IMG/VR virus record: IMGVR_UViG_2531839667_000014
Span: 1 to 36,921 of that record
Source: a virus
Taxonomy: Duplodnaviria > Heunggongvirae > Uroviricota > Caudoviricetes
Strand: one strand, 5' to 3'
DNA: 36,921 bases
Shown here: in pieces, positions 4,401 through 32,112 of the stretch
Layout: every line of letters starts with the position of its first letter
Numbering within the stretch: position 1 is the first letter of the stretch
The notes under the pieces: model-generated
Databases searched by the model: none
What the model was told of the DNA's origin: nothing
Seen by the model: the letters and a program-made list of their open reading frames with translations, nothing else
Made by a program: the position numbers and the translations under genes

Positions 4401-4877
4401 GGTTTTGCCTTTAATGGTGATGTCTTTTTCCGTCACCCAGCCACCGTTACGCTGTATCTGAACCAGCAGGCGGACTTCCGACGGATTCCGGTCCCCCTTT
4501 GAGGTGGTTTCCACCAGTGCCTGCACACCGAAGGTCAGGCGCAGACGGTCGATGTTTGCAGACGTAATGGTGCGGGTGATCGGCGTGTCATATTTCACTT
4601 CCGTACCCAGCACCGTCTCGGAGCCGGAGGATTCAAACCCCTCCGGCGGTGTCTGCTCCTGCTCACCGGCACGGAACACCACCGTGACACCGGAGATATT
4701 GGTATTCCCCTCACTGTCCAGCACTGGCGTACTGTTCAGCAGCACACTTTTTAATCCGTCCACCGGACCTTCAATCGGCCCTTCACTGATGGCGTCTATC
4801 ACGCTCAGCATCTGGGATGATTTCAGGTTGTCCTTCGCTTCGCGCGGGGTATGCCCCTTACTGCTGCCTTTACCCAT
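1464..4877 (-). CDS. J: host specificity / central tail fibre protein J
   Basis: 1137 aa; N-terminus [20 protein letters not shown]... and most of the length match lambda J from memory; the C-terminal ~150 aa appear divergent. Confidence 0.95.
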
Positions 4878-7263: not shown

Positions 7264-10200
7264 TCAGGCACTGCATAATCCTCCGTCCCGACGTGATGAC
7301 TGCATAATTGACACAACCCTGCTGTCGATCAGATCCACCAGCCCCCTGGCTGACTGCGTATCTGTCTCGCCATTGCTCCCTTGATTCTGAATGCTGATGT
7401 GATACACGGGAGAATAAACAAATCCACCGCCACCATTCACATTGCCAATGGCTCTGACTCCAAGAGAGCCGTCCGCTGCCCGAGTCAGTGGCATGATAGC
7501 TTCAGGCCCGGCCTCGCCCATCAGCCCGGCACCTTTCGCAAAAGCAAAATACGTCGGTGTATCCACAATGGTGTTACTGTAAGCACTCAGATTTGCCGAT
7601 GTGTAAACACCACCTTTTGCGTTTGCCACTGCACCGGAAAGCCAGTCGCCGACCGTACCAAGCCATCCTCCGGCACCGGACATGCTTTTGGAAAGTGACT
7701 TCAGCCCGTTAACGATGGCAGCGTTCATCAGAATTTTTGAAACTTCCTGGAGAATTGAACTCCCCCAGTTTCTCCAGTCCACAACATTCCCGGCCAGTGC
7801 ATCGGAAATATTTGATACCAGCCCGTCCATAGTGGAAACGACAGCATCTGCCGCCTGCGAAGCATAATCAGTGGCACTGTCTGCCCAGTTCGTCAGTCCC
7901 TCCTGGAGTCCGGCATTCCAGTTACTGCGTAAAGCATCAGCCTTTGCATAATAATCCTGCTGATCGTTGAGACGCTCTTCCAGATATTTTTCATTCAGTG
8001 CTTTTTCCTGTTTCCACAGGGATTCTTCAATTTCTCCGGTCTGATACTGTCTCAGCAGCTCATTATTTTTCTGCTCAAACGCCTGCCGGATACTCCACAT
8101 TTCCTGAAGTCGTTCACGCATCCGTGAGCCTTCACCATATCCCAGTAACTGAGCCTCATTTGATGCTCTGACACTGGCGTTACTGTCCGCCAGACTGCTT
8201 TCATACGCGGCAAGCTGCTCGCGAATTTTTTTCTGGTCGATGAGTGCCGCATTCTGTAAAAGCGTTTTTTTCTGCGCTTCTGACAGGGTTGATAATTCGC
8301 CCTGACTGACCTGATATTTCATCTTAGCCAGTTCAGTATTTTGCCCTGCCAGTGCTATTTGTTCTTTTTGCTGTTTAATCAGCCATTTATAAATATCTTC
8401 TGTTTTTTCCGCTTCGGTCTTTTTATGTGTTTTGGGTTTATTTGCCTGGTTATTTCGCCATGCATCCAGTGAGTTATTGATATAATTCTGTCTGGCTGTC
8501 TGATACGCCTCCCCCACAAAACCAAGATCATCCGCAACATAGCCCAGTCTGGCACGCTCACGCGCTTCCCCCTTCAGACGGGACAGAGCCAGTTCGCGCT
8601 TGCTGTTATTCAGTGCAGTCTGCTGCTTATCATCCAGAGTGGCCTGTGGCAGCCGTAATGGTGCAGTCACCAGCCCCTGTCGCTGCTGAAGTAATTCATT
8701 ACCAAGCCCGAGAAGGCGATTAAACTCGGTATACTGCCCGTTCATGATCAACAGGGACTGATACGCTTTGTTTTGTTCCGCCGCCTGTTGACGGATCAAC
8801 GCCACCCGTCGCTCCTCCAGCCCGGCAAGCACATCCTGAATGGATTGCGCTTTGCCCTGCATTTGAGTGAGGCGAGACTGTTCAACTGCCAGTTGATTTG
8901 TTGCTTCTGCAAGCCCTTCTGTGACAGTTTTTACCGACGTCATGTAGTTAATCATAAAACCGTTATCGGTTGTCCAGCCCGGGTTTGCCAGCACATACTG
9001 ATAGCCAGCAATTTTTTCCTGTAAGGATTTAATCTTACTTTTCTGCTCGTCAATTAACCTGTTCTGCTCCTTCAGTGCCTGCCGCGTCTTTTCTTCATTA
9101 TCTGACGTTTCAGGAAGCGACATTGCCGACGTTTTCTGGCGAATTTCGTCGATTGTTGCGGCATACTGGCGTGCAGATTCTCTGGCCTGCTCCTGATTCT
9201 GATACATTGTGTACCAGGCCGTCGCCCCCAGCATGACGAGTCCCGGCACACCACCAACCAGCCCCAGCGCACCACTTAACAGACGGCTCCCCACTGACGT
9301 GACATTATTCAGCGTTGTCTGTGCCGCTGTTCTGGCCGCAATATTACGGGTAAGTGACGCCTGGGCAACTGTCAGCTTCGCTTCTGCTGCGGCCTGCCTT
9401 TCGGTACCGCGAGCAGCAACAACCGCCTGTTGCGCACGATAAACCGCCGCACGCGCCCTGGCGGTTGCTATCTGTGTCCCCCGGAGTTGCGCTTCCGCAA
9501 GAGCCACTTCGTTTCTGGCAGCAGTAATTAATCCGGCAGTTGCAGATCCAGCAGAAGCCGCCATATTGCCAAAATATCGGGCTACCCCGACGGCAACCAG
9601 AGCACCGGCAGCGGTTGCCACGGTGTCAATATTGCCTGCAATACCATTCAGCACCCCGGAGAGCGTCTTCGTCACTCCGCTTGCCTCGTTCGCACCACCA
9701 ACCCAGGCCATAAAGGCGTTTTCAACTTTGGTTGCAGAGGATGAAACCGTATCAGGCATTGCTGCATATTCATCACGCAACGCCCCAAGCTGACTAATCA
9801 GTGCAGGAACAACCTTATCGGCGGTCAGTTTTCCGTTATCCGCCATGGCCTTCAGATCCTTACGGGCAACGCCCATTCCCGCAGCCAGCGCACGAATAAC
9901 ACGATCACCGCTCTCATTCACGGCGTTAAATTCTTCACCGCGCAGCACTCCCTGCGCCAGTGCCTGGCTGAACTGCGTGATCACCGAACTGGCTTCTGCT
10001 GTACTGGCACCGGATAATTTCAGGCCCGTGGAGATCGCCTCGGTGACTTTCAGTACCTCCTCAGAACTGTAACCATACTCCCGCATGGAAGCTGCAGAGC
10101 GGGCAAAAAGGCTGGCGTTATCAGAAAAAGCCGTCCCCGTTCTCTGGCTGATTGCCATTAATTCACGTTGTGATGCCTGAAAATCATCACTGGACTGCGT

Positions 10201-10509
10201 GGCCTGCTTCAGACGGGCATTTACTGAATTCCACTCATCGGCGAGAGAAATTAGATGACCGGTAGCAAAAGCCCCGGCAAATGCCCCCGCCATATTCAGT
10301 GCCGAAGATTTAGCTGTATTTATCTGATCCGTCACTTCTGCCAGTGCACGCCGCATTTCACGGGATGCGGCAGCGGACTGCCGGCCTCCGTTCTGCATGG
10401 TACGGTAGTAATCCTGCCCCATACGCGAAGCCCGGGAGATCTCTGACTGGAATGACCGGGAATTTGCCGAGATTTTAATAATCAGTTCACGTAATGTCGC
10501 CACACTCAT
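7264..10509 (-). CDS. H: tail tape measure protein H
   Basis: 1081 aa, long Ala/Gln-rich coiled-coil region with hydrophobic segments; position between GT chaperone and M. Confidence 0.9.
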   Translation of the reverse strand: MSVATLRELIIKISANSRSFQSEISRASRMGQDYYRTMQNGGRQSAAASREMRRALAEVTDQINTAKSSALNMAGAFAGAFATGHLISLADEWNSVNARLKQATQSSDDFQASQRELMAISQRTGTAFSDNASLFARSAASMREYGYSSEEVLKVTEAISTGLKLSGASTAEASSVITQFSQALAQGVLRGEEFNAVNESGDRVIRALAAGMGVARKDLKAMADNGKLTADKVVPALISQLGALRDEYAAMPDTVSSSATKVENAFMAWVGGANEASGVTKTLSGVLNGIAGNIDTVATAAGALVAVGVARYFGNMAASAGSATAGLITAARNEVALAEAQLRGTQIATARARAAVYRAQQAVVAARGTERQAAAEAKLTVAQASLTRNIAARTAAQTTLNNVTSVGSRLLSGALGLVGGVPGLVMLGATAWYTMYQNQEQARESARQYAATIDEIRQKTSAMSLPETSDNEEKTRQALKEQNRLIDEQKSKIKSLQEKIAGYQYVLANPGWTTDNGFMINYMTSVKTVTEGLAEATNQLAVEQSRLTQMQGKAQSIQDVLAGLEERRVALIRQQAAEQNKAYQSLLIMNGQYTEFNRLLGLGNELLQQRQGLVTAPLRLPQATLDDKQQTALNNSKRELALSRLKGEARERARLGYVADDLGFVGEAYQTARQNYINNSLDAWRNNQANKPKTHKKTEAEKTEDIYKWLIKQQKEQIALAGQNTELAKMKYQVSQGELSTLSEAQKKTLLQNAALIDQKKIREQLAAYESSLADSNASVRASNEAQLLGYGEGSRMRERLQEMWSIRQAFEQKNNELLRQYQTGEIEESLWKQEKALNEKYLEERLNDQQDYYAKADALRSNWNAGLQEGLTNWADSATDYASQAADAVVSTMDGLVSNISDALAGNVVDWRNWGSSILQEVSKILMNAAIVNGLKSLSKSMSGAGGWLGTVGDWLSGAVANAKGGVYTSANLSAYSNTIVDTPTYFAFAKGAGLMGEAGPEAIMPLTRAADGSLGVRAIGNVNGGGGFVYSPVYHISIQNQGSNGETDTQSARGLVDLIDSRVVSIMQSSRRDGGLCSA

Positions 10510-10519
10510 TCTCCGGACG

Positions 10520-10541
10520 AAAAAAAACCGCCGAAGCGGTT
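10520..10541 (-). terminator. terminator-like hairpin between T and H
   Basis: Minus-strand hairpin ACCGC-ttcg-GCGGT followed by an 8-T run, inside the 40-nt gap between the T stop and the H start. Confidence 0.5.
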
Positions 10542-10549
10542 ATGTTGAC

Positions 10550-10861
10550 TCACTGAGACACTATTAAAAGCGCGTTTTCCAGTCCGGCAAATGGATCTGA
10601 TACGCCTTCTGTCTGCTCCTTCTCCCACTGAAGAAGCGCATCATTCAGTGGCACTTTGACCCCCTGCGCACCGTAAACAGCTGAAACAATCTGGGCAGCC
10701 CGGATATCAGCCCGTTCGTCCCCCAGCGGACTGAACCTGTCAAATTCTGCCCACATCATGATTTCTGATGCTGACATTTCCCGGCGTAACTCTGACAATG
10801 TGCGCCCCATCCTGAGCGCCAGCATCATCAGAAAACGCATCCCCGGAAGCGCTACTTTTTT
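10550..10861 (-). CDS. T: tail assembly chaperone T segment, expressed as a G-T fusion by -1 frameshift
   Basis: ORF in the -1 frame relative to G; reading from the slippery site gives ...KKVALPGMRFLMMLALRMGRT...; contains a DRFSPLGDERAD segment typical of lambda gpT-like proteins. Confidence 0.75.
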   Translation of the reverse strand, partial: KKVALPGMRFLMMLALRMGRTLSELRREMSASEIMMWAEFDRFSPLGDERADIRAAQIVSAVYGAQGVKVPLNDALLQWEKEQTEGVSDPFAGLENALLIVSQ

Positions 10862-23009: not shown

Positions 23010-23084
<75 letters not shown>

Positions 23085-23087
23085 ATA

Positions 23088-23163
<76 letters not shown>

Positions 23164-26562: not shown

Positions 26563-26718
26563 TTACTCCTCAGGTTCGTAAGCTGTGAAGACAGCGACCT
26601 CCGTCTGTCCGGTTCGGATTCGTACCTCGCAGAGGTCTTTCCTCGTTACCAGTGCCGTCACAATGACGGTTAAACAGATGACGATCAGGGCGATTAGCAT
26701 CGCCTTTTGCTGCTTCAT
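26563..26718 (-). CDS. hok: Hok-family type I toxin (HokD/RelF-like)
   Basis: 51 aa MKQQKAMLIALIVICLTVIVTALVTRKDLCEVRIRTGQTEVAVFTAYEPEE; single TM helix; AAGGAG RBS; the track ORF is extended in frame by 19 codons. Confidence 0.9.
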   Translation of the reverse strand: MKQQKAMLIALIVICLTVIVTALVTRKDLCEVRIRTGQTEVAVFTAYEPEE

Positions 26719-27007
26719 AGCCTGCTTCTCCTTGCCTTTCGGCACGTAAGAGGCTAACCTACGTGTGCAAGTCATAGATATGGCCTCAGATTAATGTTAA
26801 GCGTCTTGCAGGACGCGTAATGTTAACTGGGGCTTTCTCTGCCTGCCTTACAGTGGCATGCCCGAGGCAGACAGCCTCAAGCACCCGCAGCAATTCTACT
26901 TAACTATCTTTCTCCCGCAAATCGTTTTTATCCCCAGCGGCAAATCGAATACACAACCAGTGCTACCGCCATTGCAATTCCTACTGTTGTGAATGCCTCA
27001 GGCCAGG

Positions 27008-28188: not shown

Positions 28189-28803
28189 TTATTCTGGAGC
28201 GCGAAGCTGTTCCGCACAATGCAGCAGCGCATCCGTTGCTTCATTAAGCGTTACGGTATCGGCATCATCCAACCCTGCAACTTTTGCGTGCCTGACAAAC
28301 GCCGCGCAAAGGTCGTTAAACGCCAACGCCCGCACTTCAGCCAGAAAAACATCGGTGGCCGGGGTGGGCTTTTGTGGTGATATAGCAATACGAATTGTTT
28401 CAAGCCCCGATTTTGTTTTCATTGCTGGCGCTTTGATATGCCCAAGTTGCACCACATTCATGATAAACCTGCGACGGTCATCACATATCGCCTTCACCTC
28501 TGCATTCTCCGCCGCCAGCGCCACAAGATTAGCCTCCAACTCTCCTATATGCTTGTTTTGGGCTTCCCGCTCATCCAGCAGCGCCTGCACTACTGCAGGG
28601 TTGAAAGCTGCGATATAACGAGCGTTGTTCTCTGCGTTTTTCTGTCCGTCAAAACCGGGCCATTTGATAACGTCTTCACATCGTTTATCACCGGGCGTAT
28701 GCACCGCATACGTACCAGTACCCGTCGAAATAAATGCGCCCCATTCGCCCTGTGTTGCCTGTTTTGCTATCTCACGTAGTACCTGATGGTTAATTTCACT
28801 CAC
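28189..28803 (-). CDS. Ead/Ea22-like protein
   Basis: Track ORF trimmed to a GTG start with a GGAGGTG RBS that overlaps the upstream stop (GTGA); contains ...NARYIAAFNPAVVQALLDEREAQ... plus coiled coil, reminiscent of Ea22-like proteins. Confidence 0.5.
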   Translation of the reverse strand: MSEINHQVLREIAKQATQGEWGAFISTGTGTYAVHTPGDKRCEDVIKWPGFDGQKNAENNARYIAAFNPAVVQALLDEREAQNKHIGELEANLVALAAENAEVKAICDDRRRFIMNVVQLGHIKAPAMKTKSGLETIRIAISPQKPTPATDVFLAEVRALAFNDLCAAFVRHAKVAGLDDADTVTLNEATDALLHCAEQLRAPE

Positions 28804-29222
28804 GATAACACCTCCTGAAATTTCCCCTGATAAAACGCCAGCACACGCTGCATAGCTTCGCTCTTCCGGCACTCACGACAGATTATGTTCATACGCCTGT
28901 CGTAGCGGCGTATTTCTCCATCTTGTAACGACCGGATAAGACCCGGATCAACCACAGCAGGTTTCTTCACCTTTGCCCTTGATAGTTTTTTACGGGTGTT
29001 TTGCCAGTCCTTGCGAGCCTGTTCAGACGGAAATAACCCGTAGCCAGAATTGTATACATCACCACTGGCAACCAGCTCTCTGGCAAGAACGCTCATCAGA
29101 TATCTTGTCGTACCTGTCTTGGCTTCCAGTTGTCGTAACGTCTCGCGCCCACTCTGGCGCACGAGTTCAACAACCTGCCCCTTAATTTTTTCCCGCTCTT
29201 CTTGTGTAAAAACTTTTGCCAC
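28800..29222 (-). CDS. hypothetical protein with N-terminal helix-turn-helix
   Basis: 140 aa; HTH-like segment RETLRQLEAKTGTTRYLMSVLARELV; C-terminal CxxC. Confidence 0.5.
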   Translation of the reverse strand: MAKVFTQEEREKIKGQVVELVRQSGRETLRQLEAKTGTTRYLMSVLARELVASGDVYNSGYGLFPSEQARKDWQNTRKKLSRAKVKKPAVVDPGLIRSLQDGEIRRYDRRMNIICRECRKSEAMQRVLAFYQGKFQEVLS

Positions 29223-29262: not shown

Positions 29263-30210
29263 TTACCCTCTGAACCCAGGTGGAATTTCGGTATCCGGTT
29301 CAGAAATATGATTCACACAACGCTGTATTGGCGAACGCCCCAAGCGAATAACCAGCTCATCCCATTTTTCGCGAAGCTTTGACGGGCTCATGATGTTTTT
29401 TACCCAGAATGGATCCCGCTGTACCCGACCAAACATTTCACAAATTTGTCTGTGAGTTCTGCCATCCAGCATCCGCATTGTGCGCACATCATTGGCCCAT
29501 GCGGTCCAGTTTGGTTCTTTCGGTCGCATGATTTCGCCATCATCGCTGGCAGCCTGCTCGTAAAGACTCACGATTCGTCCCCAGATCCACTGCGCACACG
29601 CCAAATCTTCCTGGCTACCCCACTGGCGTTTTTTCGCACTGAACACAACCGCGTCAGGGTGTCGGGTTAAAAAATCCTGTTCAGCCGTCTGCGGCTCCGG
29701 TTGCGAAGCGTCCGGACAAGAAGATCTTTTATCTGACGGATCAGGTTTTAATACTGACGGATCGGGGCCAACCATCGCCCCCCTAACCGGATGTTTTTTA
29801 TCAACGGTTGATCCATCAAAATTTGACGGGTCAACCGTTGAGGGGTCAATGTTTGACGGGTCATTTTTTACCTGGTTAATTTTTCTTTTCGGTTTATATG
29901 CCTCACGCGCCGCCGCTGCTGCTGCTTCGAGTTTTTCCACATTAAGACGGTAGATATTGCTTTCATTACGCCCACCGACCTTACGTTCCTCCTTCGTCAG
30001 CCAGCCGTTCTTTTCCAGTTCTGCTATCGCAGCTTTAACCGTTGATTCACTCTTTGCCCCAATCTGACGACGAATGGTCTCCACTGCAGGCCATGACACA
30101 CCTTCGTCATTGCTGTAATCTGCAAGGCGAGCCATTACTGCCACCCTGGATAAGATCATGCCGGTGAAGGCACACCCTTCCCAGACAAGACCATGAAGCT
30201 TGCTGCTCAT
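29263..30210 (-). CDS. replication initiation protein (O-like, N-terminal winged-helix domain)
   Basis: 315 aa; N-terminal DNA-binding domain ...SWPAVETIRRQIGAKSESTVKAAIAELEKNGWL...; the linker is encoded by the iteron cluster; position downstream of cro-like and YdaT-like genes. Confidence 0.65.
   Translation of the reverse strand: MSSKLHGLVWEGCAFTGMILSRVAVMARLADYSNDEGVSWPAVETIRRQIGAKSESTVKAAIAELEKNGWLTKEERKVGGRNESNIYRLNVEKLEAAAAAAREAYKPKRKINQVKNDPSNIDPSTVDPSNFDGSTVDKKHPVRGAMVGPDPSVLKPDPSDKRSSCPDASQPEPQTAEQDFLTRHPDAVVFSAKKRQWGSQEDLACAQWIWGRIVSLYEQAASDDGEIMRPKEPNWTAWANDVRTMRMLDGRTHRQICEMFGRVQRDPFWVKNIMSPSKLREKWDELVIRLGRSPIQRCVNHISEPDTEIPPGFRG
29734..29900. repeat. candidate origin of replication: iteron cluster plus AT-rich tract inside the initiator gene
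   Basis: 9-mer TGACGGATC/TGACGGGTC at 29734, 29755, 29824 and 29854, an inverted near-copy at 29810, an inverted pair TCAACGGTTGA/TCAACCGTTGA, then a T/A-rich stretch at 29863..29900. Confidence 0.55.
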
Positions 30211-30233: not shown

Positions 30234-30659
30234 TTAGTGCATCACCAGGGCATTTCCCGCCGGACCACCACGATTCATCTGATTGAAACCAGCGATCGCC
30301 ACTGCGACAAAATCATCAGCGTCTCTCACCAGTCGTTCCCGCGTCTCCACCAGCTCCCGAAAATAGGCTGAACTGTGGCTGCGCATTCGGGCCACCAGCA
30401 GAGGTGGCATTGCCTTTTCGATCGCTGGTAACAACGCCTGAATTTTTTTAACCGCATCAGGGGTGTCTTTCTCCACCCAGCGGAAAATTTTCTGAGTATT
30501 GCGAGCCAGGGCTTCCGGATGGCTGTCGTCATACAGTTCCGGAAACGTCATACCCAACTCAAAATAAGCCTGGGTTATTCCAGCTGCCGGAACTTTTTCG
30601 CCATAAGTACGCGCCCAGGCATTCATCGCCATGCGGATGTGTTCATGCTTGATTTTCAT
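30234..30659 (-). CDS. YdaT-like / CII-position regulator (putative)
   Basis: 141 aa starting MKIKHEHI...; second gene of the rightward early operon after the cro-like gene; family call from memory and weak. Confidence 0.4.
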   Translation of the reverse strand: MKIKHEHIRMAMNAWARTYGEKVPAAGITQAYFELGMTFPELYDDSHPEALARNTQKIFRWVEKDTPDAVKKIQALLPAIEKAMPPLLVARMRSHSSAYFRELVETRERLVRDADDFVAVAIAGFNQMNRGGPAGNALVMH

Positions 30660-30918
30660 GAATCAACTCCGGTGTATTTGGTGTGTTAGCCTTATCTCCA
30701 ACAGGCAACCCGTCTGTTGGATTCGGGTATAAATCTGGTCGCAATTCATGAGGAGTCACCCCAGTTGCAATATAAATTTGACGAACCCGTTCTCCTGTCG
30801 GCACTCGACCTTTGTATTCATTTGCCCATTTGTGTATTTGAGACGGCCAAGCCCCTATTGCTCGCCCTAGCGGACGAATACCACCAGCAATCTTTATTGC
30901 TTTGTCCAATGCTGTCAT
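30643..30918 (-). CDS. Cro-like (YdaS/DicC-type) HTH regulator
   Basis: 91 aa; HTH-like segment near the N-terminus; GGAGG RBS 5 nt upstream; divergent from the repressor gene. Confidence 0.65.
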   Translation of the reverse strand: MTALDKAIKIAGGIRPLGRAIGAWPSQIHKWANEYKGRVPTGERVRQIYIATGVTPHELRPDLYPNPTDGLPVGDKANTPNTPELIHENQA

Positions 30919-30946: not shown

Positions 30947-31015
30947 ATTGTTCACTTAAAACGAACATAAGTCAACAACCTGAGGAATTGTTAGTGTTCA
31001 CTGAACGGTTATAAT
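30947..31015. promoter_or_regulatory. immunity switch: divergent promoters with operator repeats
   Basis: Minus-strand promoter TTGACT-N17-AACAAT (30975..30947) overlapped by TGTTC-N9-GAACA (30949..30967); plus-strand promoter TTGTTA-N16-TATAAT (30988..31015) with the palindrome GTTCAcTGAAC (30996..31006) in its spacer; TATAAT ends 6 nt before the repressor ATG. Confidence 0.6.
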
Positions 31016-31021
31016 TGCCAA

Positions 31022-31411
31022 ATGGACATGAGAAAAAAGCAATACGACACCCCGCTGGCAGAAAGGTTAGATACGATCTCGCAACAGCATCATTTAAGCG
31101 GTTCAGATTTAGCGCGTATCGCTGGTGTAGGTCGTTCATCAGTCAACGCATGGAAAAAAAGAGGGACAATCAGTAAAGATTCCGCAGCTAAAATTGCAGA
31201 AGCTACAAACGTTTCCCTTTCTTGGCTACTGACAGGAAAAGAAGATACAAATAGAGAGGCGCTTGATGATGATGAGAAAGCCCTGCTTGATGTTTACAGA
31301 AACCTGCCACCCGTAGAACGTAGAAATATGCTGGCAGCTTTTCAAATGCGACTTCAAAAACTGACCGAATTTTACTCAGAATACGTTGACCCAATCACAC
31401 GACAAAAATAA
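31022..31411 (+). CDS. CI/DicA-like repressor (HTH-XRE type, no peptidase domain)
   Basis: 129 aa with HTH ...LSGSDLARIAGVGRSSVNAWKKRG...; divergent from the cro-like gene; followed by a terminator and the dicB-operon promoter. Confidence 0.7.
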   Translation: MDMRKKQYDTPLAERLDTISQQHHLSGSDLARIAGVGRSSVNAWKKRGTISKDSAAKIAEATNVSLSWLLTGKEDTNREALDDDEKALLDVYRNLPPVERRNMLAAFQMRLQKLTEFYSEYVDPITRQK

Positions 31412-31432
31412 TTCTTTATTTTACAAAATGAT

Positions 31433-31455
31433 ACCGCCGTAAGGCGGTTTTTTTT
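31433..31455 (+). terminator. rho-independent terminator after the repressor gene
   Basis: ACCGCC-gtaa-GGCGGT followed by TTTTTTTT. Confidence 0.7.
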
Positions 31456-31466
31456 GCCTCTCGCGC

Positions 31467-31495
31467 ATTCATAGTGTTGACATTTGTTCACCTAA
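31467..31495 (+). promoter_or_regulatory. promoter of the dicB-type operon with overlapping operator
   Basis: TTGACA (31467..31472), 17-nt spacer, AACAAT (31490..31495); operator TGTTC-N9-GAACA at 31475..31493 has the same geometry as the site in the cro-like promoter. Confidence 0.6.
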
Positions 31496-31578
31496 AGAGA
31501 ACAATGTATTCCATCAAAGTACAACGGTGCGACAGGTCTTAGTTCCGCTACCCCGGCGTTAAGGGGAAATGAGGTCAC

Positions 31579-31734
31579 ATGGATACTATCAATCTTGGCA
31601 ACAACGAATCTCTGGCATACGGTGTGTTTCCCAACCAGGACGGTACGTTCACCGCTATGACGTATACCAAAAGCAAAACGTTTAAAACCGAATCTGGCGC
31701 ACGTCGCTGGCTGGAAAGAAACTCAGGTGAGTGA
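31579..31734 (+). CDS. ydfA: small protein, YdfA-equivalent (51 aa)
   Basis: Manually found ORF MDTINLGNNESLAYGVFPNQDGTFTAMTYTKSKTFKTESGARRWLERNSGE; length and operon position match K-12 ydfA as recalled; symbol assigned by synteny. Confidence 0.55.
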   Translation: MDTINLGNNESLAYGVFPNQDGTFTAMTYTKSKTFKTESGARRWLERNSGE

Positions 31735-31735
31735 T

Positions 31736-31864
31736 ATGGATTTCGACACAATCATGGAAAAGGCTTACGAAGAATACTTCGAAGGCCTTGCCGAAGGCGA
31801 AGAAGCTCTCAGCTTCAGTGAGTTTAAACAGGCGCTTTCCTGCTCGGAAAAATCTAACGGCTGA
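31736..31864 (+). CDS. ydfB: small acidic protein, YdfB-equivalent (42 aa)
   Basis: Manually found ORF MDFDTIMEKAYEEYFEGLAEGEEALSFSEFKQALSCSEKSNG starting 1 nt after the ydfA stop; symbol by size and synteny. Confidence 0.5.
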   Translation: MDFDTIMEKAYEEYFEGLAEGEEALSFSEFKQALSCSEKSNG

Positions 31865-31893
31865 TAAGCGAAGCAGCACCGCGAGGAATCAGT

Positions 31894-32112
31894 ATGCAGA
31901 AACGAGAACCCGTCATCATCGCGCCAGACTATACCGATGATGAACTTTATGAGTGGATGCACCAGAAAATTAAGGCAGCGCAGGACCTGAAATGGGCCAA
32001 TGAAGCCAGGGCTAAGCAGGCCGAAAATCTGTCTGCTCTGGAAAAAGATATTACCAATCTGGAAAAAGCAGCGGCATTAAGTATCGCCAGAATGATTACA
32101 TACCCGCGTTAA
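31894..32112 (+). CDS. ydfC: small protein, YdfC-equivalent (72 aa)
   Basis: 72-aa ORF with a coiled-coil-like sequence; third gene of the operon; symbol by size and synteny. Confidence 0.55.
   Translation: MQKREPVIIAPDYTDDELYEWMHQKIKAAQDLKWANEARAKQAENLSALEKDITNLEKAAALSIARMITYPR

Follow-up and report, generated by a model that had tools for sequence, protein, structure and literature searches.

A probable lambda-type replication origin within the O-like initiator gene of a lambdoid prophage

The O-like gene and its prophage context

The window analysed here, i.e., the whole stretch of 36.9 kb of DNA, includes an O-like replication initiator gene whose host element is an Escherichia coli lambdoid prophage with the gene order cI-like, cro-like, cII-like, O-like and ren-like (Table 1). 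The O-like gene is neighboured by a DUF977/Ren-like gene and then an Ead/Ea22-like gene, and no P, DnaC-like, DnaB-like or helicase-loader gene was found between O and Q in this prophage. Lysis, Q, integrase and exonuclease genes are retained, and the element may be a defective prophage. Transcripts from the pR-like promoter candidate would cross the cro-like, cII-like and O genes, and would thereby also traverse the origin that is proposed below. An Rfam scan of the window returned sok and two tRNAs only, and nothing at the O-like locus.

The O-like protein is matched over its full length by phrog_391 ('replication initiation O-like', E 4e-113), and the gene has been annotated as a helix-turn-helix protein in NZ_CP090611.1. 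From its N- to its C-terminus, the protein has a winged-helix domain of the HTH_36 type (N-domain), a disordered linker, a lambda-O-like domain (C-domain), and a tail that resembles DnaT. In the AF2 model, the linker (aa 109-174) is disordered between the folded domains 1-104 and 176-290, and the N-domain has the topology H-H-H-H-E-E-H with a pLDDT of 73-88. Foldseek matches of the N-domain are winged helix-turn-helix (wHTH) dimers of the MarR/ArsR/PadR type; the fold search with the AF2 model returned generic winged-helix regulators only, none of which pointed specifically to an initiator of solved structure. The N-domain is presumed to be the iteron-binding domain. The C-domain shares 36% identity with lambda O (E 3e-25, BLASTP) and also matches phi80 gp15 (E 2e-26). 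As the N-domain belongs to the Pfam family HTH_36 rather than PF04492 (Phage_rep_O), and the C-domain has its homologues in lambda O and phi80 gp15, the gene is, by sequence homology, a mosaic lambdoid O gene. The original prediction had assigned the gene to an initiator family different from that of lambda, which holds for the N-domain and is only half right for the protein, because of the homology of the C-domain. The C-terminal tail, for which the AF2 model shows disorder, is nearly identical to the final 20 residues of host DnaT. It was matched by phmmer to the PDB chains 2ru8_A, 6aep_A and 9zbt_D, and it also matches positions 160-179 of the NCBIfam DnaT model; two recent preprimosome papers do not state a function for this C-terminal end of DnaT.

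Table 1. Features of the O-like locus (positions in the window;. denotes no strand assigned)
Feature	Position	Strand	Basis or remark
pR-like promoter candidate, TTGACT-17-AACAAT	30947..30975	-	upstream of cro-like gene; consensus scan only
O-like replication initiator gene, 315 aa	29263..30210	-	ORF; phrog_391; Pfam HTH_36; AF2
N-terminal winged-helix domain, aa 1-104	29899..30210	-	Pfam HTH_36 at aa 25-71; AF2
A/T-rich tract (T/A stretch of the original prediction), upstream of array in gene orientation	29861..29900	.	encodes KPKRKINQVKN
Iteron unit 1 core	29846..29856	.	gene orientation TCAAACATTGA; encodes S-N-I-D
Iteron unit 2 core	29831..29841	.	gene orientation TCAACGGTTGA
Iteron unit 3 core	29816..29826	.	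gene orientation TCAAATTTTGA
Iteron unit 4 core	29801..29811	.	gene orientation TCAACCGTTGA
G+C-rich spacer	29764..29800	.	43% A+T
GATCCGTCAG pair, candidate unwinding/host-factor region	29713..29763	.	elements 29754-29763 and 29733-29742
C-terminal helical domain, aa 176-290	29341..29685	-	BLASTP; AF2 pLDDT 85-91
DnaT-like C-terminal tail, aa 296-315, QRCVNHISEPDTEIPPGFRG	29266..29325	-	phmmer; NCBIfam DnaT model

The repeat array and its A+T-rich flanks

The original prediction of an origin at this locus was based on a cluster of repeats and a T/A-rich stretch inside the gene, and all of its sequence statements proved correct. Copies of TGACGGRTC are present on the plus strand at 29734, 29755, 29824 and 29854, and represent four of the six in the whole window, where 0.56 would be expected and none of 100 shuffles reached six. 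Moreover, the inverted near-copy is TGATCCATCA (29809-29818), the inverted pair consists of TCAACGGTTGA at 29801 and TCAACCGTTGA at 29831, the T/A-rich stretch has an A+T content of 75% vs 49% in the window, and the minus-strand ORF encodes the repetitive peptide ...NDPSNIDPSTVDPSNFDGSTVDKK... as described. The choice of TGACGG(A/G)TC as the iteron unit has to be revised, since it mixes two elements: two of the four copies correspond to the spacer and core ends of the array (GA-CCCG-TCA), and the remaining two belong to a separate, family-wide element, GATCCGTCAG, the two GATCCGTCA copies thus being a conserved element distinct from the iteron.

The actual unit measures 15 bp, and four such units, each with an 11-bp palindromic core TCAAnnnTTGA, make up the array at 29801-29856. 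The cores (TCAANNNTTGA) start at 29801, 29816, 29831 and 29846, at an exact spacing of 15 bp, and account for four of the five sites in the 36.9 kb (0.83 expected), the only other core motif being located at 19916. If the peptide and the local codon usage are taken as fixed, the probability of TCAAnnnTTGA in all four units is approximately 1e-4 according to an analytic calculation. The core of unit 3 is the centre of a 41-bp near-palindrome (29801-29841), and the dyad of the repeat unit may be either TCAAnnnTTGA or TTGAnnnnTCAA. A degenerate fifth unit is present within the spacer at 29768-29778, and reads GCGATGGTTGG here and TCAATGGTTGA in relatives from Erwinia, Mixta and Edwardsiella in the unit alignment; the four cores and this degenerate unit compare with the three or more dyad-symmetric repeats of lambda-type origins. 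The array together with the GATC pair covers codons 119-160, which belong to the disordered linker.

The region of the GATCCGTCAG pair contains three Dam sites, is moderately A+T-rich, ends with ...GATAAAAGATCTTCTTGTCCG, and aligns with the sequence that is located right of the iterons in lambda and phi80, i.e., the position of the AT-rich ori arm. Its first GATCCGTCAG element (GATCCGTCAGTAA) is unchanged, even at synonymous sites, in 84 of 85 species-level genes, and the third-position diversity of the region is 0.008 among 47 E. coli variants. The 30-bp window 29724-29753 has an A+T content of 70% (z 2.3), which is shorter and less A+T-rich than the lambda counterpart, and in most relatives the lowest stability within the gene is found in the GATCCGTCAG-pair region. 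At the opposite flank, the A/T-rich tract 29861-29900 is the most A+T-rich tract of this particular O-like gene and contains its least stable 30-bp window (z 2.7), with a third-position diversity of 0.007 in the same 47 variants. This tract is absent from clade B relatives, and the T/A stretch of the original prediction (29862-29900) is conserved only within the clade of the window. The A+T-rich tract that had been predicted does exist, but the probable lambda-equivalent side is the GATCCGTCAG-pair flank downstream of the iterons in gene orientation (29713-29763) and not 29862-29900. Both flanks are short (61-77% A+T) and weaker than those of lambda.

Other origin-associated signals were also considered. 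Analysis of GC skew, which had been proposed with the original prediction, and of AT skew across the locus revealed no interpretable switch at this scale. Two exact DnaA-box matches, at 29203 (-) and 29933 (+), are found within 1.1 kb. Of these, the one close to the array (29933-29941) was rejected as a family feature, because its conservation is confined to the E. coli lineage and it is absent from other genera and from clade B. For IHF, a single one-mismatch match overlapping unit 4 was obtained, which is uninformative.

Conservation and distribution of the array

A sequence comparison of approximately 135 distinct relatives identified the DNA, and not the encoded peptide, as the target of selection. 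In clade B (76 distinct relatives, 354 units), the first Ser of the unit is encoded by TCA in 93% of cases, compared with 16% in the remainder of these genes, the second Ser is encoded by TCT in 87% and in no case by TCA, and Lys is encoded by AAA in 100% vs 61% elsewhere; the Fisher P values for this codon choice overstate independence, since duplication links the units of an array and common descent links the genes. As a control, the conserved four-fold sites of the N-domain in the same clade B genes are saturated, with a third-position entropy of 1.72 bits. In the clade of the window, amino acids vary (S/P/L, N/T/I/M, I/V/F, D/E/G) and the pattern YYAAnnnTTGA with the CCCC/GGGG spacer is retained. 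Moreover, third-position diversity among the 47 E. coli variants is 0.007-0.046 over 29719-29910 vs 0.12-0.18 in the flanking domain-coding parts, and synonymous diversity of the ori segment is 3-20 times below that of the flanking domains. The lambda-like layout that had been predicted, with an origin inside the O gene, thereby stands in so far as a putative cis-acting DNA element under DNA-level selection is located in the part of the O-like gene that codes for the disordered linker.

A near full-length copy of the O-like gene, 90-97% identical, is present in approximately 1500 of 5426 complete E. coli genomes, and relatives are encountered in Shigella serotype-converting phages, Klebsiella, Salmonella, Yersinia, Erwinia, Edwardsiella and Providencia. 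The number of units per relative ranges from 1 to 8, 5 being the commonest, and close relatives show in-frame differences in copy number (315 vs 320 aa in E. coli; 733R5 vs Klebsiella phage 1 LV-2017). The array always accompanies the HTH_36 N-domain, a co-occurrence that is partly mere physical linkage, and is combined with at least three types of C-terminal region, with the tail present or absent. Conversely, the lambda-like C-domain is also joined to other N-domains, each with its own array in the same place, including six 23-bp palindromic units in mEp460, four 18-bp units in lambda, and four annotated gp15 sites in phi80. Neighbouring genes vary among the relatives, with the N-domain and array remaining constant, and in several relatives a gene for an own adenine methylase adjoins the O gene. 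The layout with O only is found in the isolated plaque-forming phages LLS, SfIV and mEp460.

Natural plasmids were considered as evidence of autonomy and discarded, as the matches are mostly prophages in large replicons or mislabelled chromosomes. One 16-kb circular record consists of early-right DNA from a related prophage, and typing revealed no other replicon in it; it is suggestive of autonomous replication, but its O gene is frameshifted in the assembly.

Probable function of the array and comparison with known systems

The repeat cluster is probably a lambda-type replication origin of the lambdoid prophage, located inside its own initiator gene, in agreement with the textbook principle of an origin within an initiator gene. 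Three other explanations have to be weighed against this function. The repeats could be a by-product of a repetitive, low-complexity DPSxx pentapeptide linker that grows and shrinks by replication slippage, leaving DNA without a cis function. The unit comprises exactly 5 codons, so that DNA and peptide repeat in step, and the in-frame shifts in copy number between close relatives and the disorder of the segment in the AF2 model would fit such an origin of the repeats; nevertheless, this explanation is highly improbable, since codons are position-specific (TCA for the first Ser, TCT for the second), the palindrome of the dyad-symmetric cores survives amino acid replacements, the synonymous sites of GATCCGTCAGTAA are invariant, and synonymous diversity is low in the array with saturated synonymous sites nearby. 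Moreover, the equivalent repeats of the mEp460 type have a period of 23 bp, which is not a multiple of three. The array could also be a relic, i.e., a former origin of this type that is now non-functional in this prophage, whether because its fifth unit is degenerate, because a partner gene was lost, or because the element is cryptic. The fifth unit is indeed degenerate here (GCGATGGTTGG) and intact in other genera, the cores of units 1 and 4 vary at some positions among E. coli variants, and a helicase-loader gene is absent. The O gene, however, is intact, full length, and conserved at 90-97% identity in the approximately 1500 complete E. coli genomes, the synonymous diversity of the ori segment is strongly depressed, the plaque-forming phages LLS, SfIV and mEp460 share the layout with O only, and the prophage has kept its lysis, Q, integrase and exonuclease genes, which together render a relic improbable.

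Somewhat less improbable, although still unlikely, is a purely regulatory role, in which the repeats bind the initiator or another protein for autoregulation, handcuffing copy-number control, or as a roadblock to early-right transcription, with the origin being located elsewhere. Plasmid iterons are known to double as control elements, as is the case for those of P1, F and R6K, and the modest A+T-rich flanks and the lack of a DnaA box conserved outside the E. coli lineage are compatible with such a role. Against it stand the segment-by-segment match to the experimentally defined lambda ori and the annotated phi80 gp15 sites in homologous genes, and the constancy of the N-domain and array while neighbouring genes differ among relatives. 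Moreover, the single further core motif in the 36.9-kb window (19916) implies that no second array is available as origin.

For the origin function, the following sequence of events, including binding, unwinding, helicase recruitment and origin activity itself, is inferred. Transcription from the pR-like promoter would express the O-like protein and traverse the origin, upon which winged-helix dimers of the N-domain would bind the four packed TCAAnnnTTGA units and possibly also the weaker fifth unit. The resulting nucleoprotein complex would destabilise a neighbouring A+T-rich flank, for which the conserved GATC-bearing region 29713-29763, at the place of the AT-rich arm of lambda, is the best candidate and 29861-29900 the alternative. 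Subsequently, the lambda-O-like C-domain and the DnaT-like tail would recruit host DnaB/DnaC without a phage P protein. As the spacing of 15 bp is far tighter than that in the arrays of lambda, phi80 and the mEp460 type (20-24 bp), the geometry of the complex must differ.

With dimers placed every 15 bp on nearly opposite helix faces, the complex could be filament-like rather than a wrapped O-some as in lambda. The invariant Dam-site pair (GATCCGTCAG) could act as a methylation-sensitive unwinding or sequestration element, and the initiator could mimic the C-terminal tail of the restart protein DnaT, dock on host helicase loading, and thereby replace P. It is tentatively proposed that these three properties jointly define a P-independent and mechanistically distinct branch of lambdoid replication, which is possible rather than likely.

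In the published literature on lambdoid phages no description of the origin of this family was found, and the genome paper on SfIV is silent on an origin. The array family belongs to a widespread 'initiator-only' replication module, which very many lambdoid prophages carry. The location of the probable origin provides a testable start, with a repeat unit, a register, a conserved GATC pair and a co-travelling domain, and opens the way to miniplasmids, to the question of helicase recruitment without P, and to predicted incompatibility or specificity groups among prophages.

The locus resembles lambda ori, as well as its Stx-phage and phi80 gp15 versions, in the location of the probable origin in the linker-coding part between a DNA-binding N-domain and a recruitment C-domain. 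As in lambda, there are four dyad-symmetric repeats, here followed in gene orientation by a candidate A+T-rich segment, and the gene context is cro, cII, O and ren-like. Right of the repeats, the three systems have recognisably similar sequences, which read AAAAGATCTTC.. here and in phi80, and AAAAGATTATTC.. in lambda. The locus differs from these origins in its HTH_36 N-domain (vs Phage_rep_O), in the G+C-rich spacer and two GATCCGTCAG elements between the iterons and the A+T-rich part, and in the extra A-rich tract upstream of the array in the clade of the window. Further differences are the 11-bp core at 15-bp spacing (vs 18-19 bp at 20-24-bp spacing), the lack of a P gene, and the DnaT-like tail, which is absent from lambda O and phi80 gp15.

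The origins of iteron plasmids, P1 oriR among them, combine initiator-binding repeats with an adjacent G+C-rich stretch and short GATC-containing repeats, the methylation of which matters for initiation. Their iterons are located outside the rep gene, their Rep proteins carry two winged-helix domains in tandem, and DnaA boxes form an integral part. Unlike these origins (RepA/pi/RepE type), the locus described here has intragenic iterons, a single wHTH domain, and no conserved DnaA box.

The mEp460-type O genes (loci L011 and L002) share the lambda-like C-domain, the DnaT-like tail, the layout with O only, the DUF977/LygF gene downstream, and an array at the same gene position; their N-domain, however, is unrelated, and their array consists of six 23-bp palindromic units (CATCGGGTCAAAATGACCYGATG) and three 12-bp units. 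Gene 44 of LLS (locus L008) has the same N-domain family (clade B), TCAAAATCTGA units, a GATCC pair and a GFRG tail, and differs in its C-domain, which is Phg_2220_C instead of lambda-O-like. According to passages of a 2025 study (Genome Res 2025, PMC12315714), 34 of 314 lambdoid phages encode an O homologue only, and these phages are unstudied and their replication is not understood; in its passages on O-only replication, this LLS paper mentions neither an origin, nor iterons, nor the DnaT-like tail.

Lambda, P22 and L carry their own iterons within the O or gene 18 coding region, and such repeats have been regarded as the likely origin; for L, six 11-bp repeats were proposed as origin from sequence alone (PMC8022706). 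Gene 18 of P22 and L is comparable in being a distantly related O-type initiator with its own repeat family in the coding region, and is different in belonging to another initiator subfamily, with a DnaB-type helicase partner (gene 12) and unrelated repeats. Finally, DopC (Brezellec et al. 2017, PMC5509034) combines an HTH_36 N-terminus with a DnaT C-terminal motif (PDB 2ru8) and originates from lambdoid O genes. It has become a domesticated gene of the chromosome, and its authors found no iterons in it (PMC5509034), whereas the repeat array is present and conserved in the O-like gene of the window.

The prophage and its mosaic O gene

The O-like gene is 100% identical to a chromosomal stretch of E. 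coli strain DCE7 (NZ_CP090611.1), in which the prophage adjoins yccA, and near full-length copies with 90-97% identity occur in approximately 1500 of 5426 complete E. coli genomes. The element that carries it is a lambdoid prophage of Escherichia coli, in which the local gene order includes no P-like, DnaC-like or DnaB-like gene (see the table). Together with a hokD toxin gene, annotated at the matching position of the DCE7 record, the sok RNA makes up a type I toxin-antitoxin locus (hok/sok) that lies between the replication region and the Q region, and the two tRNA genes are annotated there as tRNA-Thr and tRNA-Gly. The leftward arm (31022-32112 and beyond, plus strand; 9766-11792 in the DCE7 locus) resembles the Qin/Kim cryptic prophage of K-12, with the order cI-like repressor, DUF1391 (ydfA-like), ydfB, ydfC, dicB, and DUF1482.

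Features of the early-right region and neighbouring genes in the window
Feature	Position	Strand	Remarks
cI-like repressor gene	31022-31411	+	divergent
pR-like promoter candidate	30975..30947	-	consensus match only
cro-like gene	30643-30918	-	YdaS family
cII-like gene	30234-30659	-	YdaT family
O-like gene	29263-30210	-	315 aa
DnaA-box match	29933-29941	+	TTTTCCACA
Array unit 1			TCAAACATTGA-CCCC, gene orientation
Array unit 2			TCAACGGTTGA-CCCG, gene orientation
Array unit 3			TCAAATTTTGA-TGGA, gene orientation
Array unit 4			TCAACCGTTGA-TAAA, gene orientation
GATCC pair	29754-29763, 29733-29742		GATCCGTCAG
DnaT-like tail, aa 296-315	29266-29325	-	QRCVNHISEPDTEIPPGFRG
DnaA-box match	29203-29211	-	TTTTACACA
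DUF977/Ren-like gene	28800-29222	-
Ead/Ea22-like, further small genes, hokD, RusA, Q, lysis genes		-	beyond DUF977/Ren-like gene
sok antitoxin RNA	26713-26886	-	Rfam, 100 bits
Two tRNA genes	23013-23163	-	between Q antiterminator and holin genes

Pfam detects only HTH_36 (aa 25-71) in the O-like protein, and PHROGs assigns the whole protein to phrog_391, 'replication initiation O-like' (E 4e-113). An AlphaFold2 model built on 42 homologues predicts a winged-helix domain (1-104), a disordered stretch (109-174), a helical domain (176-290), and a disordered tail (293-315); the N-domain fold matches dimeric MarR/ArsR/PadR-type winged-helix regulators (Foldseek). The C-terminal half of lambda O can be aligned to residues 152-288 (36% identity, E 3e-25) and phi80 gp15 to residues 178-299 (E 2e-26), whereas the N-domains of these two proteins belong to Phage_rep_O. 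The different initiator family of the original prediction thus applies to the N-domain but not to the C-domain. Moreover, the last 20 residues are nearly identical to the extreme C-terminus of the host restart protein DnaT (PDB 2ru8, 6aep, 9zbt). On the basis of these three parts the gene is a mosaic lambdoid O, whose DNA-binding module is of a different kind, whose recruitment domain is lambda-like, and to which a DnaT-like tail has been added. An ending of the type IPxGFRG recurs behind different C-domain types in relatives such as SfIV, LLS, Kp4866-6, and mEp460. Lambda O, phi80 gp15, and phiP27 L17 lack it, and each of these three has a P-like or DnaC/helicase partner. The tail may substitute for P; the articles consulted on DnaT give no function for it there.

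Architecture of the repeats and their flanks

Every sequence statement of the original prediction holds: four copies of TGACGGRTC lie between 29734 and 29862 (expectation for the entire window, 0.56), the inverted near-copy and the two 11-mers are present, and so is the T/A-rich tract (29861-29900, 75% A+T). The proposed single unit, however, merged two different elements, since two copies represent the inter-unit junction GA-CCCG-TCA and the other two the separate GATCC element. A repeat finder returned a 15-bp period in four copies (29801-29875) and a 41-bp near-palindrome (29801-29841). Each unit consists of an 11-bp palindromic core, TCAAnnnTTGA, and a 4-bp spacer, and the 15-bp spacing places successive sites approximately 154 degrees apart around the helix. 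The array contains four of the five TCAANNNTTGA sites in the 36.9 kb (0.83 expected). The minus-strand frame across the repeats encodes DPSNIDPSTVDPSNFDGSTVD, and with this peptide and the local codon usage all four units would spell the palindrome with a probability of ~1e-4. As the unit junction TTGA-CCCG-TCAA is itself nearly palindromic, the true dyad could alternatively be centred on the spacer, which would put the GACCCGTCA of the original prediction at the site centre.

Relatives with the same N-domain were retrieved by tblastn and pattern scans from isolated phages (SfII, SfIV, LLS, phiNP, YeP1, phiP27, and several Klebsiella and Escherichia phages), 80 IMG/VR contigs, and 80 species-representative Enterobacterales genomes. 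Dereplication left 136 distinct genes in two N-domain clades. Clade A (the window, other E. coli prophages, Erwinia, Mixta, Edwardsiella, Morganella) has YYAAnnnTTGA units with CCCC or GGGG spacers, and clade B (SfIV, LLS, most other genera) has one to eight TCA(A/G)AATCTGA units per gene. In every non-truncated gene the array directly follows the N-domain, and in both clades it is followed by GATCCGTCAGTA...GATCC(A/G)TCAG(A/T)TAAAA. Copy number is polymorphic in frame among E. coli alleles, which encode 315 aa with four units or 320 aa with an extra LTVDP unit (TTAACGGTTGA). The array codes for aa 119-137 and the GATCC pair for aa 150-160, which places both within the predicted disordered linker.

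In lambda and phi80 an A+T-rich arm follows the iterons in gene orientation (...AAAAGATTATTCGTCAG... and ...TTAAAAGATCTTCGTCCG..., respectively). Both arms line up with ...GATAAAAGATCTTCTTGTCCG... at ~29733-29713 of the window, exactly where the lambda O protein alignment begins. In a nearest-neighbour stability scan (30-bp windows across the gene), most relatives in each clade have their stability minimum at the GATCC pair (z 2.4-3.3). In the window's own gene this segment ranks second (29724-29753, 70% A+T, z 2.3), after the upstream A-rich tract (29861-29890, 77% A+T, z 2.7). The tract, which is the T/A-rich stretch of the original prediction, exists only in clade A, but its synonymous sites show strong conservation within E. 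coli. In view of the alignment and the scan, 29713-29763 is taken as the probable lambda-equivalent arm, with the upstream tract kept as a second, clade-specific candidate; both flanks are modest compared with that of lambda.

Two copies of the element GATCCGTCAG(T/A) stand 18-24 bp apart, and their synonymous sites do not vary across genera, so that two Dam sites are strictly kept; the element matches no known protein-binding consensus. Six of the phage loci examined (733R5, Klebsiella phage 1 LV-2017, phiNP, LLS, YeP1, mEp460_4F5) have a gene for a DNA adenine methylase close behind O, with one small gene in between in the last two. Together, the kept Dam-site pair and these methylase genes suggest that the putative origin is under methylation-dependent control. 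Two exact DnaA-box matches lie within 1.1 kb around the gene, where an estimated far fewer than one would occur by chance; the box next to the array is present in every E. coli variant and absent from other genera and clade B.

Selective constraint on the DNA of the repeats

Four tests agree in pointing to constraint on the DNA of the repeats, and not on the peptide. Among 354 units in 76 distinct clade B genes, the first serine is encoded by TCA in 93% (16% for serines of these genes outside the units), the second serine by TCT in 87% and never by TCA, and the lysine by AAA in 100% (versus 61%). Neither peptide selection nor general codon bias can explain why serines only five bases from each other keep different, fixed codons. 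Shared ancestry was controlled for with the conserved four-fold N-domain codons of the same genes, whose third positions are close to saturation (mean entropy 1.72 bits), compared with 0.45 bits for the third position of the first serine. The P values overstate independence because units and genes are related, which leaves effect sizes and the ancestry control unaffected. In clade A the residues vary between genera (S/P/L; N/T/I/M; I/V/F; D/E/G/N; P/G), yet the DNA retains -CAAnnnTTGA- and a C4 or G4 spacer. The first GATCC element is GATCCGTCAGTAA in 84 of 85 species-level genes, with GAT instead of GAC in 84/84, TCA in 84/84, and GTA in 82/84. Finally, across 47 distinct E. coli variants, third-position nucleotide diversity reaches 0.154 (N-domain), 0.116 (C-domain), and 0.18 (tail), but only 0.046 for the array, 0.016 for the G-rich spacer, 0.008 for the GATC-pair segment, and 0.007 for the A-rich tract. 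Within the cores, variation is highest at the central base of unit 4, and a dyad site is least likely to be contacted at its centre.

Binding of the repeats by another nearby protein is argued against by the genes around O, which differ among relatives. The N-domain and array occur in front of three or more types of C-terminal region (lambda-O-like, Phg_2220_C, and others), with or without the GFRG tail, and the lambda-O-like C-domain also stands behind other N-domains with their own arrays at the equivalent position, as in the mEp460 type, lambda, and phi80. The mEp460 type, with a different N-domain lacking a Pfam match, carries inside its O-like gene six palindromic units of 23 bp, CATCGGGTCAAAATGACCYGATG, and after them three of 12 bp, TACAGAGAATAC (1759-1940 and 4465-4636 in loci L011 and L002). 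Its 23-bp period is not a multiple of three, and the repeat there is thus plainly a DNA feature; this iteron set is apparently undescribed. The exchange is consistent with the classical lambdoid picture, in which N-domain and iterons form a specificity module swapped against a recruitment module. Co-inheritance of N-domain and array is consistent but not decisive, as linkage alone would produce it for two segments 100 bp apart.

Comparison with lambda-type origins

The sequences show the anatomy and the selective constraint; binding, melting, helicase recruitment, and origin activity are proposed by analogy with lambda. In this model the initiator would be expressed by transcription that starts at the pR-like promoter and runs across the origin. 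Dimers of the winged-helix domain would fill the four or five dyad sites, the nucleoprotein complex would melt an adjacent A+T-rich flank, and the C-domain and DnaT-like tail would bring in host DnaB/DnaC without P.

The distantly related O/gp18 proteins of lambda, P22, and L each have their own iterons in the coding region, and these repeats are taken as the probable origin (PMC8022706). DopC is a domesticated O derivative with HTH_36 and the DnaT C-terminal motif, for which no iterons were found (Brezellec et al., PMC5509034). According to a Genome Research 2025 article (PMC12315714), an O-only replication module, with an O homologue and no P gene, is present in 34 of 314 lambdoid phages, including LLS; the article states that none of these phages has been the subject of experiments and that how they replicate is not understood. 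A published description of an origin for the HTH_36-type O family was not found, although many subscription articles lay outside the search and this absence is not proof. A 15,977-bp circular 'plasmid' record (NZ_CP148542.1) comprises nothing but the early-right part of a related prophage, namely cI, cro, the cII-like gene, an O-like gene whose array has five units, a DnaC-like ATPase gene, DUF977, Q, and lysis genes. It has no replicon typed and carries frameshifts in the cII-like and O genes, and represents either a lambda-dv-like element that occurs naturally or an artefact of assembly.

Lambda has four annotated iterons of 18 bp and phi80 four annotated gp15-binding sites; these arrays and those of the mEp460 type have roughly two-turn spacing, in contrast to the 15 bp found here. 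Clade A units (CCCC-TCAAnnnTTGA-GGGG in Edwardsiella/Erwinia; 29801-29856 in the window) resemble the lambda iterons TCCC-TCAAAACGA-GGGA (1035-1119 in the lambda locus), sharing a C-run, TCAA.., ..GA, and a G-run. This likeness could reflect distant common ancestry of a winged-helix/site pair or coincidence; the N-domain Pfam families differ. The repeats of the original prediction are confirmed with a corrected unit, and its interpretation is partly supported: the array very probably represents an origin of the lambda type within a mosaic O gene, which is not a new arrangement. The new detail lies in the iteron type and tight spacing, the invariant Dam-site pair, and the association with an O-only module bearing a DnaT-like tail.
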